This document shows positions 1 through 30,718 of a stretch of 30,871 nucleotides of DNA, one piece after another. A program made the position numbers and the translations under genes. The stretch covers positions 1 to 30,871 of the IMG/VR virus record IMGVR_UViG_3300012940_001451. One strand, 5' to 3'. Origin of the DNA: a virus (lineage: Duplodnaviria; Caudoviricetes). A model generated the notes under the pieces. The model worked only from the letters and a program-made list of their open reading frames with translations. It did no database searches and was not told where the DNA came from. Positions within the stretch are counted from its first letter, which is position 1. Each line of letters opens with the position of its first letter.

Positions 1-1158
1 ATGGGAGCGATGCACAGACTTACCGCGAAGGCCGTTTCTTCGCTTCCGGCAGGCAAGCACGCCGATGGCGGTGGACTGTGGCTTTACAAGCGCGAAAATG
101 GTGCACAATGGGTGCTCCGTTTTACGATCCATGGCAGACGCCGGGAGATGGGACTCGGCTCTGCAACCCTTGTATCGCTTAAGGAAGCGCGGGAGACGGC
201 AAGCGACTGCCGAAAGGTGGTACGCGCGGGGATGGACCCAATCAAGGAGCGTGCTCGCAAGCGCCGGGAAGACGCTCGAAACATCCACCTCCTCAAGGAC
301 GTTGCCGACGACGCTTTCGAGGCCCGCAAAGCCGAACTGAAAGGCGACGGCAAGGCCGGCCGCTGGTTCACGCCGCTGGAGCTGCACGTCCTTCCGAAGC
401 TCGGCAAGGTTCCGGTAGCCGACCTGGACCAGAAGGACATTCGCGATGTGCTGGCGCCAATCTGGCACACCAAGGCCGAGACAGCGAGGAAAGCACTCAA
501 TCGGCTTGCCATTGTCCTGCGCCACGCCGCTGCGCTCGGACTTGATGTGGATCTACAGGCGACGGAGAAAGCCCGAGCACTGCTTGGCAAGTCACGTCAT
601 AAGGCGACGAACATTCCGGCGATGCCGTGGAAGGACGTTCCGGCCTTCTACCAGTCGCTTTCGGACGGCACGGTCACGCACCTTGCGCTGCGGCTCCTGA
701 TCCTCACTGGCGTCCGCTCCGGGCCGCTGAGGCATCTCCATGAAGATCAGATCGACGGCAATGTCTGGACGATCCCCGGCGAGGCCATGAAGGGCAGGAA
801 GGACGCAACGACAGACTTCCGAGTGCCATTGTCGAAAGAGGCACTGTCCGTGATCGATCAGGCTCGTCGGCACGCCCGCGATGGGTTCCTGTTTCCAAGC
901 ACGAAGCACGGCGTCATCAGTGACATGACCATGAGCCAGCTCATGGCGCGGGCGAAGATGGACTATCGGCCGCATGGCTTCCGCTCATCCGTACGAGACT
1001 GGATAGCCGAGACGACAGACACGCCACACGAGGTTGCTGAGACGATCCTCGGTCATACTGTCGGCGGCGCGGTGGAGCGCGCTTATCGGCGGACGGATTA
1101 TCTGGAGCAGCGGCGCAGTGTCATGGAAGAATGGGGAGCGTTCGTCGCTGGAAAATAG
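1..1158 (+). CDS. int: Tyrosine recombinase, P4-like phage integrase (start may be ATG at 10)
   Basis: N-terminal arm-binding motif (HADGGGLWL...RRREMGLGS...VSLKEARE); catalytic residues in GVRSG, MKG, HGFR, LGH and AY are intact. Confidence 0.95.
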   Translation: MGAMHRLTAKAVSSLPAGKHADGGGLWLYKRENGAQWVLRFTIHGRRREMGLGSATLVSLKEARETASDCRKVVRAGMDPIKERARKRREDARNIHLLKDVADDAFEARKAELKGDGKAGRWFTPLELHVLPKLGKVPVADLDQKDIRDVLAPIWHTKAETARKALNRLAIVLRHAAALGLDVDLQATEKARALLGKSRHKATNIPAMPWKDVPAFYQSLSDGTVTHLALRLLILTGVRSGPLRHLHEDQIDGNVWTIPGEAMKGRKDATTDFRVPLSKEALSVIDQARRHARDGFLFPSTKHGVISDMTMSQLMARAKMDYRPHGFRSSVRDWIAETTDTPHEVAETILGHTVGGAVERAYRRTDYLEQRRSVMEEWGAFVAGK

Positions 1159-1184
1159 AAAGCCCCGTCTCGGAAGACGGGGCT
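1150..1184 (-). terminator. Intrinsic terminator of the minus-strand sRNA/pemK unit
   Basis: On minus strand: 10-bp perfect stem AGCCCCGTCT-TCCG-AGACGGGGCT followed by TTCTATTTTCC; no U-tract on plus strand. Confidence 0.85.
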
Positions 1185-1272
1185 GTCAGCCTTTAGGCTT
1201 GGTGTCGCCTTATGTGACTCGCCACCTCTCGGTGGACTTGAGGCGCACTACGGTTTCCCGCAAGCGCGATCG
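1152..1272 (-). ncRNA. Putative ~120-nt structured small RNA downstream of the PemK/MazF-like gene
   Basis: Lies between a sigma70-like promoter (1306-1278) and a terminator; hairpins GCGCTTGCGG-GAAA-CCGTAGTGCGC, CCACC-GAGA-GGTGG (both GNRA loops) and AGCC-TAAA-GGCT; no plausible ORF. Confidence 0.7.
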
Positions 1273-1277
1273 TTGCG

Positions 1278-1306
1278 AATATGATGCTTCACAGGTGTTC
1301 CGTCAA
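1278..1306 (-). promoter_or_regulatory. Sigma70-like promoter overlapping the 3' end of the pemK-like gene
   Basis: TTGACG (1306-1301) - 17 nt - CATATT (1283-1278) on minus strand. Confidence 0.7.
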
Positions 1307-1717
1307 GGGATCGAGACCCAGCGCAAATAGGACGGACCTGCGCACTTTCGCGAGTTCGTCGGGCACCAGGACCATCTTGAGGTATTTTCTCTTTCCGCTG
1401 CGCGGATCACGCCCCGTATACGGCATGGTCAGCCGACGATAGGCAACAGTCGCCAGCATATCGGCCTTGGCGAACTTGAATTGACCTTCATAGGGTGGCG
1501 GCGCACTGTAAGGAAGCGCCACCTTGCACTGGTATCGAATGCCAGATCGCGGAGGCGTCGTGCTCAACGGCACGACGGTGCAAAGGCCGTCCCTGTGTGG
1601 GAGGCGCGGTGATACGACCACAACCAACCGCTCCTTGACCATCTCTGGTTCGCGGAAGCCTGTGTCATAGTTGCAGATGAGGATTTGCCCCGCCAAGGGC
1701 GCATAGCGCATTTCCAT
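1289..1717 (-). CDS. PemK/MazF-family endoribonuclease toxin, no adjacent protein antitoxin gene
   Basis: GQILIC...GFREPEMVKERLVVVVS...CTVVPLSTT motifs, with the Arg and Thr/Ser positions of the MazF active site. Confidence 0.85.
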   Translation of the reverse strand: MEMRYAPLAGQILICNYDTGFREPEMVKERLVVVVSPRLPHRDGLCTVVPLSTTPPRSGIRYQCKVALPYSAPPPYEGQFKFAKADMLATVAYRRLTMPYTGRDPRSGKRKYLKMVLVPDELAKVRRSVLFALGLDPLTEHL

Positions 1718-1723
1718 GCGCCA

Positions 1724-1752
1724 GCTATAGATGATTCTTGGACTTCAAGCAT
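1724..1752 (-). promoter_or_regulatory. Possible promoter giving a leaderless pemK mRNA
   Basis: ATGCTT - 17 nt - TATAGC - 6 nt - ATG(1717); no Shine-Dalgarno before the ATG; the -35 is weak. Confidence 0.4.
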
Positions 1753-2151: not shown

Positions 2152-2493
2152 TCACTCGCTGTTTGCCGGAAGGCAATAGTACCTCGATTGAGGATATTTC
2201 TGCATATAAAGGGTAGCGAGGTCTTGGCAGAATTCCAAATCTCCCATGAGGCCAAAAACGAGAGCGACCCGATCGGACTCGCCGAGGAAATTTGTCTTTG
2301 CCAGCCAATAATCGGTCGCTCCGCCGATCTTTTTCTTTCTCACGAGGTCGGTAAGTGTACCAAGCTGATCTTGGTAGGTCGCATTGCCTGTCCACTTACG
2401 GATATCGCGCATTGGCGTCCCAAAAACAGCCCAAGCGCCAACGATGATCAGGATCATCACACCGAGACCTGATCCCTCGTCGCTCATCCCCAA
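2152..2493 (-). CDS. Membrane-anchored hypothetical protein (start may be ATG 2487)
   Basis: N-terminal TM segment GLGVMILIIVGAWAVF; C-terminal Cys pair; GGAGG upstream; 7 nt from the next gene. Confidence 0.7.
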   Translation of the reverse strand: MGMSDEGSGLGVMILIIVGAWAVFGTPMRDIRKWTGNATYQDQLGTLTDLVRKKKIGGATDYWLAKTNFLGESDRVALVFGLMGDLEFCQDLATLYMQKYPQSRYYCLPANSE

Positions 2494-2552: not shown

Positions 2553-3098
2553 TTAGCAATTTGGGGGAGCGCTGGCGAGATCACCCTTGATCTTCTCCCA
2601 CGCCGCCAGTCCAGCCTCGGTCAGCACGTACGCGCCGATGCGGTCTGGATATTTCGCTTGGGGCCGCGTTTCCAAAAAGCCGCGCACCAACGGACGCTCC
2701 TCGGTGGCCGGCCCGCAGTTTTGGATGTGCCTCCAAGGCACAGCAACTCCGATCCCGTAGACCGCCAATTGCTGTAACGCATCGCGCTCACGCTTATTGA
2801 GCGGCGATCCGACCGGTTCCTCTTCCCACCTCGCCTCGTCCGGTTCATGGGGCGCGGCCGATTCCCTTTTCCATTTGTTTGCCGAGCCGAATCTGCCCTT
2901 GCGGCTTTCCAGCAATTGATCAATGCGATTGATAGGGCGTTCTCCCCAGCCCGGTCCTATTAAACCGGCTGCCATCTTCTCCGGCACAAGGCGTATCGTG
3001 ACATCGCCAATCTGCACTACCGGAATGTACCCCGCCTGCGCTGCTCCATTGCAGAGGGCGGTTACCTGGCGGGCGGTTAGGTCGAGCTTTCTTGGCAT
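2553..3098 (-). CDS. Hypothetical protein, possible C-terminal winged-helix domain
   Basis: Long ORF co-oriented with the leftward operon; LNKRERDALQQL...RGFLE...YVLTEAGLAAW looks wHTH-like; start uncertain (3116 or 3098). Confidence 0.6.
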   Translation of the reverse strand: MPRKLDLTARQVTALCNGAAQAGYIPVVQIGDVTIRLVPEKMAAGLIGPGWGERPINRIDQLLESRKGRFGSANKWKRESAAPHEPDEARWEEEPVGSPLNKRERDALQQLAVYGIGVAVPWRHIQNCGPATEERPLVRGFLETRPQAKYPDRIGAYVLTEAGLAAWEKIKGDLASAPPNC

Positions 3099-3174
3099 TT
3101 GCGCAAGAAGCCGCAAAACATCAATGAAGGCGTGGCCGAAGTGGCGGCAGGATAATTTTCCGCTGGCGGGACGT

Positions 3175-3606
3175 TCAGTCTTTAAGCTTTGGCAGACGAT
3201 CTACGAATCCCGCGCTCGCCAAGCTGGAAAACCGCTCTCTGAGCTTCCCAAGGTGTTCGCTTATCCGTTTCCTAAAGAGCAAGTCGTCGCCCGCGTCCAA
3301 TTCTTCAGCGCGAGCGAGAAGCTCGTCAAACTCCTCCAAAATATCTTTGGTGGTCGGTATTTGGGGATAAAGCGAGTCTAGAGTTTCCCTGATTTCGTCG
3401 GCAACTGACCGCCCCTGACTATGGGCGAAAAAGGCAAGCCGATTTACTAGATCCTGTGGAAGCGAAAAAGTCAGGCCGAACGACTCTTCAAGTCGCCCGA
3501 CAATCTCAGAAGTGAGTGATCGCTTTGCGCGTGATGCTGCCGCCTCAAGCTTTTCCTTGAGTTCGGCCGGCATCCGCAAATTCACCTGTGGATCGTTTCT
3601 CGCCAT
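3175..3606 (-). CDS. Arc-family (ribbon-helix-helix) repressor with two RHH units; probable immunity repressor
   Basis: DPQVNLRMPAELKEKLEAAASRAKRSLTSEIVGRLEESF then LTFSLPQDLVNRLAFFAHSQGRSVADEIRETL; occupies the cI position. Confidence 0.85.
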   Translation of the reverse strand: MARNDPQVNLRMPAELKEKLEAAASRAKRSLTSEIVGRLEESFGLTFSLPQDLVNRLAFFAHSQGRSVADEIRETLDSLYPQIPTTKDILEEFDELLARAEELDAGDDLLFRKRISEHLGKLRERFSSLASAGFVDRLPKLKD

Positions 3607-3695: not shown

Positions 3696-3941
3696 ATGGC
3701 ACGAAACGACCCGCAGGTTCCTGTGCGTCTGCCGCCTGATGTCAAAGCCTTCATCGAGGCCGAAGCTCAGGAGAACGCCAGTTCTAAGAACAGTGAGATT
3801 GTCCGTGCCATTCGTGCGGCCATGAAAGCAAAAGGCGTCTCTGAATTTATCCACACCCCTCGCGGGTCGGATAATTTTCAGAACGAAAACGGCGCGGCAT
3901 CGGCTGCAACCGACCCGCGCCACGTCACCATCAACCCCTGA
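3696..3941 (+). CDS. Arc-family DNA-binding protein in the cro position
   Basis: DPQVPVRLPPDVKAFIEAEAQENASSKNSEIVRAIRAAM; TAAGGAG SD. Confidence 0.85.
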   Translation: MARNDPQVPVRLPPDVKAFIEAEAQENASSKNSEIVRAIRAAMKAKGVSEFIHTPRGSDNFQNENGAASAATDPRHVTINP

Positions 3942-8558: not shown

Positions 8559-9044
8559 ATGAAAACGCTGGCCGACATATTTGAGCACACGCTCGAAGAC
8601 ATCTACTACGCCGAGAATGCCATCACGAAGGCGCTGCCGAAAGTTGCGAAAGCCGCGACCGACGCAAAGCTGAAGAAGGCAGCTGAGGACCACCTTGCCG
8701 AAACCAAGGACCAGATCACCAAGCTTGAGGAAGTGTTCAAGTCGATCGGCAAGAAGGCGTCCGGCACTAAATGCGATGCAATCGAAGGCCTGATCAAGGA
8801 AGCCGACAGCTTGATGAAAGAGGCTGAGGGCACGGCGCTGAATGCCGGTCTTCTCGCGGCATGCCAAGCGGTCGAGCACTACGAGATTTCCCGCTATGGT
8901 TCTCTCCGCGAGTGGGCCAAGGACCTCGGGCACGACAAGGCACACAAGCTTCTGAGCGAAATCCTCGACCAGGAGAAGGCCACGAACAACAAGCTGACCA
9001 ATCTTGCGGTTACGGCGATCAACAAGCCCGCTGCCAAGGCCTAG
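8559..9044 (+). CDS. Ferritin-like DUF892 (YciE/YciF family) stress protein
   Basis: LEDIYYAE..ITKALPK...HLAET..QI..LEEVF...CDAIEGLIKE...QAVEHYEISRYGSL..WA; GAGGAG SD. Confidence 0.92.
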   Translation: MKTLADIFEHTLEDIYYAENAITKALPKVAKAATDAKLKKAAEDHLAETKDQITKLEEVFKSIGKKASGTKCDAIEGLIKEADSLMKEAEGTALNAGLLAACQAVEHYEISRYGSLREWAKDLGHDKAHKLLSEILDQEKATNNKLTNLAVTAINKPAAKA

Positions 9045-9064
9045 CCCACAGCCAATTCGAGGAA

Positions 9065-9099
9065 ATGAATTGGCCCGACTGATGCCGGGCCAATTTCAT
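9065..9099. terminator. Hairpin between convergent stress genes, probable bidirectional terminator
   Basis: AATTGGCCCG - 8 nt - CGGGCCAATT with A/T-rich flanks. Confidence 0.7.
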
Positions 9100-9103
9100 G
9101 AAA

Positions 9104-9388
9104 TCAGTCTTTGTGCTCAGGCATGTCCTTGAGCTGATCCTTCGTCCACGACGTTACGGCATGAACATCGCCGTCCTCGTCGCGCATGAAATCGAGCTGG
9201 TTGGCAGGTACGGCAACTGGCTTGGCGCCGATGCCAAGGAACCCGCCGACGTCGATGACAACCTGTGTTCCATGGACGTGATCAACCGAGCCGATCTTCT
9301 CGTCCTCGGGGCCGTAGATGGTGGCGCCGTCGAGAACGTCGGGGGTCAACTCGTCGCTGCGAAGGCGAACATGATTGCTGTGGTCCAT
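9104..9388 (-). CDS. PRC-barrel domain protein (94 aa)
   Basis: Start re-called at MDHSNHVRL (GAGGAG SD); GATIYGPEDEKIGSV...VIDVGGFLGIGAKPVAV...WTKDQLK. Confidence 0.9.
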   Translation of the reverse strand: MDHSNHVRLRSDELTPDVLDGATIYGPEDEKIGSVDHVHGTQVVIDVGGFLGIGAKPVAVPANQLDFMRDEDGDVHAVTSWTKDQLKDMPEHKD

Positions 9389-9419
9389 TTGGGATGTCTC
9401 CTCTCGTGTGGACATCTTC

Positions 9420-9444
9420 AACATCTGAGGTGAACGTACGTTCC
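9420..9444 (-). promoter_or_regulatory. Sigma-EcfG/RpoE2 general-stress promoter
   Basis: GGAAC - 16 nt - TGTT on minus strand, ending 31 nt before the PRC-barrel start. Confidence 0.7.
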
Positions 9445-9505
9445 AGGAAAACAGAACTGCCGCGAAGAAGTGATCGAGGCCAAGCGGAGGCGGCATAGGC
9501 CGGCG

Positions 9506-9751
9506 TTAGCGGAACTCCGCTGCCCGATTGTTCGCCATTGCCGGATAGCAGTTCCTGCCTCGCACCCTATCAGGAACAGTGACCTGTTCCGCGTCTACGA
9601 TTGGAATCGGAAGGTATCGATCGATGTCCGCGGCAAGTTGGATACGCCAGCGTCGCCCGTAGGCCGCACGGTATCGCTCGAAGGTCGACCTCTCGATGCG
9701 CAGTCCGACTGCGATCAATCCAGGTTGATCTCGCATCCGCTTGGAGTCCAT
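9506..9751 (-). CDS. Possible BrnA-antitoxin-like small protein (may be degenerate)
   Basis: VGLRIERSTFERYRAAYGRRWRIQL loosely matches the BrnA C-terminal pattern V.LR.D.....F...G..WQ... Confidence 0.3.
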   Translation of the reverse strand: MDSKRMRDQPGLIAVGLRIERSTFERYRAAYGRRWRIQLAADIDRYLPIPIVDAEQVTVPDRVRGRNCYPAMANNRAAEFR

Positions 9752-9895
9752 GCCGAACCATAAGGCGGCAAGGACTGCAGGTCGATAAATCTCGGATGCA
9801 CCTCGAGGTAGAGACCGGTTGTAGTCAGGAACGGCGGACGGACGAGGCTATGGCCCGTGAGGTAATGGCAGGGAGTGGTTCAGTCCGTTCCTGAG

Positions 9896-10375
9896 CTAGA
9901 GTCCCATGGTCTTTTTGGCTGCATCCGTAGCGATTGATACCACGATGTCGCGAATGCCACTTCCGATGATCGGGCCAGCCTTGGCGATCAGCTTTTTCAC
10001 GCGAGTAGCGGCAACTGTCGTTTGAGGCGTATCAGAGGCTAATGCGATGAAACTGGCCTTCGCCTTCTCCCGCTCTGCTTCGTCTATTTCTTCAATCTCA
10101 TCAGCAAGCTCTTTCGCTGCTTCGACGGAACGTTCGGTCCAAGGGAAAGACTTCCCGCATTCGGGACAGAAAGCGGGAGCACCAAACATCGGAAAGTGGC
10201 TTCCCCATTCGCTATCGCGCCCATCGCCTCGGATTGAACTTTTGCAGGCTGGGCAGGCAGAGATCGTGGCTTCGCCGCACTGAGCACAAAACTTGGTGGC
10301 ATCTCCACTGTTTACGTCTCCAGTGATGATGTGCCCGTTCATGCACACTTGGCCGACGCTGTATTGATAACCCAT
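9896..10375 (-). CDS. DUF2321-family zinc-ribbon protein
   Basis: QVCMNGH...FCAQCG...ACPAC...IRG...PAFCPECGKSFPWT plus helical C-terminus; GGGGAG SD before ATG 10375. Confidence 0.85.
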   Translation of the reverse strand: MGYQYSVGQVCMNGHIITGDVNSGDATKFCAQCGEATISACPACKSSIRGDGRDSEWGSHFPMFGAPAFCPECGKSFPWTERSVEAAKELADEIEEIDEAEREKAKASFIALASDTPQTTVAATRVKKLIAKAGPIIGSGIRDIVVSIATDAAKKTMGL

Positions 10376-10441
10376 GCCCGTTCTCCCCAATGCCCGTCAT
10401 GAGAGCTTCGCCCATGGGCTGGCAAAGGGCAAGACGGCAAT

Positions 10442-11170
10442 CTAGGGTGCAACGGCCTCTGCCCCAGGTCTGACCGGGTTTCCCTGCTCGTCGATCTCGC
10501 CGCGGCGAAGCGCCACCTCAAATGGGATAGAGATGAAGTAGCGGAGAAATGCCTCCGTAAATCCGCGCATCGGCACAAGTTCTTCTCGCGTCACCCCCTC
10601 AGGTTCATGAGCGCCATCGTTGCCGATCAAGCGTATCTGGTCGCTCCAATCCTTCATAGAAGGTGGGAGCAGGCCAAGTGTGACTAGTTTCTCGATCCGT
10701 GGAGCGAGATTGCCCTTTATCTCGGGGTGCTTTTCGCGAATAGCAACGTCAATTGACCGGCGATAGAGCATCGCCGCGGCATCTTCACCGTCCTCGGTGG
10801 AGAAATTTCGTTCTGCCGACTTAAATGCTTTCGCCACAGCCTCGCTTAAGTGGGGCGGAACGGCCTCGCGATGTGATGGGGGTTGCACCAAAGCGATTGA
10901 AAGGCCTCCCGCGGCCAAATCATACGGTTTGTTAATCGCTCCGTCGAAGGAACTGATGAAGGACGAATATTGAGAGGCGTTAGCATAAGCGGCGGCGGTA
11001 ACCTTTGCGGTCACGGGCTGCCAGCACTTACCGCACGGAGAGAAGATCATGGCGTATGGTCGCTCCCGACTTTTGGACAAAAATTCCGGCGGTGCAAAGA
11101 ATCTTGAATTGACCTCCATAGTCATATTGCCCGCGTGGCAATACGGGCAAGTAAATGTCCACTGGGCCAA
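10442..11170 (-). CDS. Zinc-ribbon + DUF4145 (HEPN-like) protein
   Basis: CPYC...CGKC; AAAMLYRRSID...LAPRIEKL...IRLIGNDGAH (R-x6-H); TTG start with GGAGGGG SD. Confidence 0.85.
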   Translation of the reverse strand: MAQWTFTCPYCHAGNMTMEVNSRFFAPPEFLSKSRERPYAMIFSPCGKCWQPVTAKVTAAAYANASQYSSFISSFDGAINKPYDLAAGGLSIALVQPPSHREAVPPHLSEAVAKAFKSAERNFSTEDGEDAAAMLYRRSIDVAIREKHPEIKGNLAPRIEKLVTLGLLPPSMKDWSDQIRLIGNDGAHEPEGVTREELVPMRGFTEAFLRYFISIPFEVALRRGEIDEQGNPVRPGAEAVAP

Positions 11171-30049: not shown

Positions 30050-30718
30050 CTAGTCTTTATAAAATCGAGCGCCCGTCTGCTGGTTTTCCCTTTGATTTCC
30101 GATGACAAGCCGAAGGTCAAGGTGTGAGGCCCATGCCTCCAGCATTGGGCGCTCGATGAACATATTCAAATGAGGCTTCAGTGGCCGTTCATAGTCTGTG
30201 ACCATGCGCTCAAACATGCTCCAGTACGGCGCGCTCTCCAAAAAGGTTATGTAGATCAGCCCGCCAGGCTTCAGGACGCGTTTCGCGTCGCGAAGGTAGA
30301 CGTAGCTTTCCTGATGGAAAAGGTGGGTCAAGACGCTGAAGAAGCACACCATGTTCGCGCTTTCGTCACGGGCAGGGATGGAAATTTGCTGGTGAAGCAC
30401 GAACTTGAAATGGTCGGGGCTGTTCTGACGAGCGTAGTCCAGCAAATCGGGAACGATGTCGGTCCCAAGATATTCGATGTCTGGCATTTTCCTGCCGAGC
30501 GCTGCGGCAACCCGGCCACTGCCGCACCCCACGTCAATAAGCGTGTGCCCCGATGAGAGACCGGCAGATATAAGAGCTGACGACAGTCCGTCACCGGCTC
30601 TTTCGTAAGAGCTTTCGCTACCAACGGCCTTCGACATGGCGGTTTCGAGCGGAAGCGTAGCCTTCATCTCGGCAACCATGTCGTTGTAGCTCTGAACGTA
30701 GTGTGGCTTTTCTGACAC
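30050..30718 (-). CDS. Class I SAM-dependent methyltransferase (moron)
   Basis: LIDVGCGSGR, YLGTDI, FSVLTHL, RVLKPGG; GTG start with GAGG SD; no DNA-MTase DPPY/NPPY/PC motif. Confidence 0.9.
   Translation of the reverse strand: MSEKPHYVQSYNDMVAEMKATLPLETAMSKAVGSESSYERAGDGLSSALISAGLSSGHTLIDVGCGSGRVAAALGRKMPDIEYLGTDIVPDLLDYARQNSPDHFKFVLHQQISIPARDESANMVCFFSVLTHLFHQESYVYLRDAKRVLKPGGLIYITFLESAPYWSMFERMVTDYERPLKPHLNMFIERPMLEAWASHLDLRLVIGNQRENQQTGARFYKD

Follow-up and report, generated by a model that had tools for sequence, protein, structure and literature searches.

What restrains a predicted RNA-cutting toxin whose gene has no antitoxin gene beside it? The question is raised by the left end of the virus record IMGVR_UViG_3300012940_001451 (Duplodnaviria; Caudoviricetes), a stretch of 30,871 nucleotides (nt) hereafter called the window, in which a PemK/MazF-like gene is followed by a short structured noncoding RNA. 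A preliminary description of this DNA had proposed that the RNA, rather than a protein, is the antitoxin. Our analysis leads to the same answer: an RNA of ~115–120 nt probably binds and inhibits the MazF-fold protein, the two forming a type III-like pair of a new family. This reading is based on the fold class of the protein, its active-site residues, a conserved promoter, a covarying RNA, the presence of one RNA per gene, and a shift of the RNA to the upstream side in one clade. We infer that the RNA neutralises the toxin and that the pair may take part in phage defence. The toxin–RNA module as such is real, widespread and apparently undescribed. Its parts in the window are as follows.

1289–1717, minus strand: gene for a predicted YifN-like PemK/MazF endoribonuclease of 142 residues, isoelectric point 9.7 (Pfam PemK_toxin, E 2.5e-7; R30, S52).
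1278–1306, minus strand: predicted sigma70 promoter of the RNA, with −35 TTGACG (1306–1301), a 17-nt spacer and −10 CATATT (1283–1278).
1243–1267, minus strand: RNA helix P1, GCGC/GCGC, whose inner stem varies, with a GAAA loop (compensatory changes; partner-swap test).
1235–1242, minus strand: unpaired junction CUC-AAG-U-C between P1 and P2, conserved, a candidate protein contact.
1221–1235, minus strand: RNA helix P2, CCACC-GAGA-GGUGG, of variable length, then a conserved C (pair probability 0.97).
1188–1219, minus strand: RNA helix P3, AGUC/GGCU, with an internal loop and helix P4, GGC/GCC (double changes in P4, swap test for P3, top mutual-information pairs).
1153–1184, minus strand: intrinsic terminator with a 10-base-pair (bp) stem (1184–1161) and a U tract, adjoining the stop of the convergent integrase gene.

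The protein has retained the features of its class. R30 and S52 align with R29 and T52 of E. coli MazF, which we take to be catalytic; of 211 distinct homologues, 210 retain R30 and 207 retain S52. Together with the Pfam match, this bears out the earlier assignment to a PemK/MazF-like protein with catalytic motifs. A basic beta-hairpin around residues 100–112 is also conserved. The fold is nearest to type II MazF toxins, and sequence matches in the PDB were weak, all of MazF type and none of type III. Pfam gave PemK_toxin only, with no membership in the ToxN, CptN or TenpN families, and no match was obtained at E 0.1 in PADLOC or NCBIfam. The nearest named homologues are alphaproteobacterial, and a profile of the family matched 1827 protein clusters at E 0.001, more distant PemK proteins included. 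A Shine-Dalgarno-like 4-mer precedes the gene in just 26 of 146 loci. As first described, no small co-oriented open reading frame (ORF) adjoins the toxin gene in the window. The leaderless promoter and gene remnant once placed upstream of it found no support, with positions 1718–1900 matching none of the other loci.

We then quantified how often the RNA accompanies the toxin. The best 80 loci from each of three collections were taken (240 in all, numbered with the prefix L), and 33 duplicates and 8 truncated loci were set aside. A descriptor consisting of RRR[AT]C, a hairpin, C and a short stem closing NANNNCAA matched 3′ of the toxin gene in 182 of 200 loci. Elsewhere it matched 50 times among 6418 other windows from these loci, in 5 of 189 windows taken upstream and on 3 of 200 reverse strands. 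L212, counted among the 182, is a spurious parse, since its RNA lies upstream. Covariance models rescued most of the misses (L020, L023, L057, L086, L087, L043, L048, L050, L114, L126, L231 and part of L233), and none matched L237, a near copy of L233. Model R3 matched 87 of 100 and 67 of 72 sources, some of them training sequences; the five it missed among the 72 were four truncated loci and a single chance match to the pattern. There was a single model match per locus and one per genome in five of five genomes. Named hosts belong to the Alpha-, Beta- and Deltaproteobacteria, Acidithiobacillus, Chlorobi and Nitrospirae, and RNAs of the same type lie 3′ of toxin homologues on a Citrobacter plasmid and in a Vibrio phage (weak R3 matches). 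Rfam returned no match in the window (best E 0.12, on the terminator) and none over the module RNA in 32 loci.

The family consensus runs from P1 (4 bp, with a variable extension) through a YUY-AAG-W junction, P2, a C and P3 with its internal loop to P4 (3 bp). In the window P4 closes the 8-nt loop GACACCAA, and the pair probability of GGC-GACACCAA-GCC is 0.87; the family consensus loop is NANNNCAA, which may be a second protein contact. The window's 120 nt fold with a z-score of −4.3, or −2.3 without the terminator, which is the predicted end of the small RNA and the toxin messenger RNA (mRNA) alike. Among homologues the median predicted length to the U-run is 117 nt, and the 3′ end is a separate terminator in 71 of 147 or P3 itself followed by Us in 40. 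Junction variants in these 147 were AAGAC (72), AAGTC (51), GAGAC (23) and GAGTC (1), the descriptor having demanded this anchor; the junction A, G and C are invariant in alignment A2. P2 varies from 10 to 34 nt, with nearly invariant base pairs.

Covariation supports this fold, so that the conserved structure on which the original proposal depended is present downstream of homologues, with covariation in P1, P3 and P4. When 40 RNAs belonging to one broad group were aligned with MAFFT, 93.8% of cells were paired and double changes occurred at 14 of 17 pairs. Double-change cells numbered 91 versus 21.7 after shuffling, the two P2 pairs scored being invariant, and pairing fell to 32–46% when partners were slid. 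Across 100 sequences, whose selection required two P4 pairs, P4 was 96.6% paired, with 50 double-change cells versus 10.7 shuffled. An alignment-independent partner-swap test on 147 sequences gave P3 a score of 20.5 with its own partner, 11.2 with a random one and 16.6 with that of the nearest neighbour, the own partner winning over the neighbour in 95 cases and losing in 18. The corresponding values for P1 were 11.8, 9.6 and 11.2 (32 better, 8 worse). The strongest mutual-information pairs in a model-fitted alignment were nested. There was no pairing signal for a pseudoknot between the junction and the P4 loop, 197 of 200 swaps scoring as high, and an invariant pseudoknot would not covary. 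Repeat finders detected no tandem array in the RNA, whose fold has no duplicated unit, although diverged tenpI-like repeats can escape such programs. Separately, in alignment A6 and the parsed loci, whether the junction reads AAG or GAG covaries with the identity of the second P2 pair (C-G versus U-A), and the base 3′ of AAG covaries weakly with a G[AT]C located past P3 (Fisher p 0.015). These covariations may reflect tertiary contacts or shared ancestry.

Several details of the structure first proposed had to be revised. The GAAA and GAGA hairpins and the terminator with its U tract were all found in the window. GNRA caps, however, do not extend to the family: the P2 loop is GNRA in 37 of 147 homologues, and ACA lies between P2 and P4 in only 17 of 147, so neither is a family feature and the idea of an ACA decoy for the toxin finds no support. 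The proposed GTC-ACATAAGGC-GAC loop did not hold up either, as GUC/GAC failed the partner-swap test and the ACATAAGGC loop and AGCC/GGCU had pair probabilities of 0.07 and 0.13. AGCC/GGCU, put forward as a further hairpin, likewise failed the swap test, and the conserved fold at this place is P3 (AGUC/GGCU) carrying P4. Both segments of an alternative pairing, CGCCT (1245–1241) with AGGCG (1210–1206), are present, but their pair probability is 0.025 and the swap result marginal (7.66 versus 7.42; 34 versus 24).

The promoter is conserved along with the RNA. TTGACG-N17-CATATT was correctly located at 1306–1278, but only the −35 element lies in the toxin's last codons, overlapping Leu138-Thr139, while the −10 element is just beyond the stop; the predicted RNA start is near G1271. 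A strict TTGAC plus nAnnnT precedes the RNA in 101 of 182 loci, as opposed to 83 of 11757 control windows. In 133 of the 182 loci, the −35 that scores best falls within the toxin ORF. The leucine of the C-terminal Leu-Thr is encoded by TTG in 88 of 97 genes versus 366 of 2110 other leucine codons. This bias implies that the dipeptide is kept for the DNA signal.

The RNA follows the toxin even where the gene order changes. In L207, L208, L212, L215, L217 and L224 the same RNA lies upstream, in the order RNA, terminator, toxin start, and a clear promoter precedes it in L207 and L212. This layout is the one described for type III operons in the available passages of two papers (PMC13682666, PMC3401426). 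Five upstream-type loci in a tree of 71 proteins formed one clade (99/91) nested among downstream-type loci, in a tree with few columns and a midpoint root. When viral sequences were searched for the RNA first, 14 of 21 pattern matches had a toxin gene, six were copies of one chance match without flanking structure, and one was an orphan behind an Arc-like gene. Among 151 genomes of G001's family, where 28 candidates per genome were scored, 10 had a model match: six next to a toxin gene, two orphans, and two in or opposite coding sequence. Five further protein matches comprised L259, with the RNA and an internal stop in the toxin gene, and four more distant ones with a promoter-like site and other hairpins 3′. 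No neighbouring ORF was conserved across the 200 loci, the largest cluster being an XRE/HTH (helix-turn-helix) gene directly upstream in 23. A covarying RNA with a conserved promoter, the lack of a conserved protein antitoxin, and one clade having the RNA in the type III position together support the original proposal. One viral contig carries two toxin–RNA modules of different subtypes within ~3.5 kb (L199:1-323 and 3001-3530), the second RNA copy sitting 3′ of the second toxin gene.

A related arrangement exists in E. coli, whose yifN gene is homologous to the toxin gene (hhalign 99.1%). In yifN and its plasmid relatives, TTGACA-N17-(G/T)ANAAT, a short RNA unlike that of the window and a terminator lie directly 3′. 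Romero et al. (2014) reported a 79-nt small RNA, ecr3777, 3′ of yifN on the same strand, with a class I 5′ site at 3958004, as one of five northern-positive small RNAs; the available passages on ecr3777 give neither a function nor a link to a toxin (PMC4681348). The −10 element of E. coli yifN is GATAAT. If, as we assume, the genome-version offset is 1977, the ecr3777 5′ site falls ~6 nt past this box. The ecr3777 RNA differs from the window RNA in sequence and fold and has no R3 match. The yifN gene is a pseudogene in K-12; of 5426 complete E. coli genomes, 4016 carry the locus. In the part of the study that gives the probes (PMC4681348 Table S9), one labelled ecr2775 matches the yifN-downstream RNA exactly (L248:646-675) and one labelled ecr3777 is absent from the yifN-downstream stretch examined, so the ORL34/ORL43 labels seem swapped.

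The RNA 3′ of yifN-type genes (L243, L242, L244, L247 and L248) is of a second type, with a consensus promoter, two short hairpins and a terminator. Its hairpin loops look alike by eye (YYU-R-GA), and it is common to the E. coli chromosome, an E. coli plasmid and Pseudomonas plasmids, with no Rfam match. A promoter-like site and short structured RNAs are likewise found 3′ of more distant PemK homologues (L260–L266); L261, L262 and L264 share a minimal RNA opening with a CCC-GAAA-GGG hairpin, as in L233 and L246. We tentatively suggest, with somewhat less than even confidence, that YifN/COG3692-like proteins represent a fourth, widespread lineage of MazF-fold toxins under RNA control. In this lineage the MazF scaffold would have traded its protein antitoxin for a single non-pseudoknot RNA whose promoter is embedded in the toxin's last codons, with at least three RNA folds among sub-lineages and ecr3777 as the unrecognised antitoxin of chromosomal yifN.

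A number of observations weigh against an RNA antitoxin. The descriptor was composed after the loci had been viewed. Neither of the type III hallmarks, tandem repeats and an H-type pseudoknot, was detected in the RNA, and the toxin has no PADLOC match. L190 has an intact toxin and just a weak minus-strand model match (E 0.016), while L241, a distant plasmid homologue, has no model match. The transcript that has been published is a sister RNA of other sequence, not a member of the window's RNA family. Orphan RNAs occur without a toxin at L255:1501-1593, L258:1501-1583 and L278:685-770(−), and the XRE/HTH gene in 23 loci is a possible protein antitoxin there. The orphan in L278 lies behind an Arc-like gene with its promoter kept, and the P4 loop of L255 is altered; such copies may be relics or protective decoys.

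Given these points, we considered other roles for the pair. RNA and protein could be partners without inhibition, the RNA serving as a substrate, an activator, the scaffold of a ribonucleoprotein that is not toxic, or a site of autoregulation tuning the mRNA that it ends. All co-occurrence results fit any partnership, and the RNA does form the 3′ untranslated region of the mRNA in the downstream layout and a leader before the terminator in the upstream clade. Nevertheless, we consider such a role unlikely: acting in cis, it would need to work from either end of the gene, and the RNA has a separate, conserved promoter. Moreover, RNA without a toxin or with a broken one occurs (L255, L258, L278, L259 and K-12 yifN), whereas intact toxin without recognisable RNA is rare (L190), the imbalance that one would expect if the RNA is the antitoxin.

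An ordinary type II system, with the toxin neutralised by the upstream XRE/HTH protein or a partner encoded elsewhere and the RNA secondary, would accord with the MazF-like fold, with the XRE gene that is often coupled to the toxin gene, and with a small Arc- or ribbon-helix-helix-like ORF in a few more loci. It is very unlikely given that 177 of the 200 loci, the window included, have no XRE gene and that the XRE loci retain the RNA, which the descriptor detected in 22 of them and a model in the remaining one. Upstream genes also vary, with a LexA/CI-type repressor in L245 and Arc-like genes in L010 and L278. Such diversity would be expected among repressors of the element, and we read the XRE/HTH gene as such a repressor. 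Still less credible is a type I-like mechanism in which the RNA base-pairs with the toxin mRNA and represses translation. Duplex energy with the own start region was −46.5 versus −45.3 ± 0.3 kcal/mol for swapped pairs, a difference that shared GC content could explain. However, the RNA is on the same strand as the toxin gene, and in 146 loci antisense complementarity to its own mRNA did not exceed swapped controls (longest perfect complement 5.48 versus 5.35 ± 0.26 nt in the start region; 7.53 versus 7.43 in the coding sequence). Its conserved parts are helices and A-rich loops, with no seed that changes with the mRNA. That the RNA is no more than a complex terminator, or else some DNA element of the mobile unit with no connection to the protein, is the least likely reading: P3 doubles as terminator in some loci and the RNA abuts the integrase gene in the window, but P1, P2, P4 and two conserved loops are unnecessary for termination, the dedicated promoter is conserved while neighbouring genes vary, and there is one model match per locus and per genome.

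If the RNA is indeed the antitoxin, the toxin would be made at a low level, often from the transcript of the element's repressor, and the RNA would be held in excess by its own consensus promoter. The AAG junction and the NANNNCAA loop, both unpaired and A-rich, would contact the basic RNA-binding surface or the active sites of the protein. When host transcription stops in phage infection, or after loss of the element, the supply of RNA would be exhausted, and the free ribonuclease would arrest the cell, resulting in abortive infection or element stabilisation. The depletion step, the contact sites and the anti-phage role are suggested by analogy with type III systems.

Such a mechanism would have consequences for annotation. 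Three type III families are known, found via tandem repeats upstream of ToxN-like genes according to the available passages (PMC3401426, PMC13682666), and a screen of this kind would miss the present module. Many genes annotated as orphan type II PemK/MazF would be RNA-controlled systems, and a classical MazF scaffold would have switched from a protein to an RNA antitoxin. Prophage anti-phage systems would gain a candidate, and an E. coli gene and a small RNA of unknown role would acquire a testable function.

The genes around the module place it in a mobile element. The window carries integrase, Arc-type repressor, primase-helicase, terminase, portal, capsid and tail genes, and is therefore a temperate phage or prophage. 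The toxin gene is convergent with the integrase gene, which lies outside the module.

1–1158, plus strand: tyrosine integrase, marking the prophage end (Pfam Arm-DNA-bind_3, Phage_int_M, Phage_integrase).

Two small ORFs with hydrophobic N-termini lie 5′ of the toxin gene (1884–2255 and 2152–2493, minus strand), with no Pfam or PHROG match; part of the former has 71% DNA identity to a Mesorhizobium plasmid gene annotated as a '4-fold beta flower protein'. Arc-like genes at 3175–3606 (minus) and 3696–3941 (plus) are divergent, with a repeated GCACCGTGCT motif in between, and are probably a lysogeny switch. The larger of the two has the same orientation as the toxin gene. Accessory genes occupy 8559–11170, between a NusG-like gene and the terminase gene (DUF892 on the plus strand, DUF2321 and DUF4145 on the minus), and a methyltransferase gene lies at the right end (30050–30718, minus).

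How does the module compare with known systems? The literature searched gave no description of the toxin–RNA pair, although the motif may figure in the supplementary data of large RNA screens. The toxin has the Kid/MazF-related fold of type III toxins, but in contrast to toxIN, cptIN and tenpIN, as presented in the available passages (PMC3401426, PMC13682666), it belongs to PF02452 and is structurally nearer to type II MazF, and its RNA is single, without tandem repeats, made of nested helices with no pseudoknot signal, and mostly downstream under its own promoter. The type III order of promoter, RNA, terminator and toxin is not that of the window, although it is found in the six upstream-type loci. 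Hence, by toxin family, repeats and window layout, the module does not fall within these three families. As in MazEF and PemIK, the toxin has a PemK domain in which the catalytic Arg and Thr/Ser are retained. The module nevertheless falls short of a complete MazEF pair: it has a conserved noncoding RNA in place of a conserved protein antitoxin gene, and its toxin has the conserved basic hairpin. Complementarity of own and swapped RNA–mRNA pairs is about equal, unlike in a type I system. The Rfam pemK motif (RF02913) is likewise a predicted noncoding RNA named after PemK genes. It occurs in Bacillota upstream of pemK genes, and had no match in the window or 32 scanned loci. The E. coli yifN/ecr3777 locus resembles the module in its homologous protein and in the promoter, short RNA and terminator directly downstream. 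In AbiF/RCd22, a prophage toxin is neutralised by a stem-loop noncoding RNA through RNA–protein binding and without a pseudoknot array, according to the available text (PMC12373285), much as we propose here. By analogy, the module likely works like a type III system.
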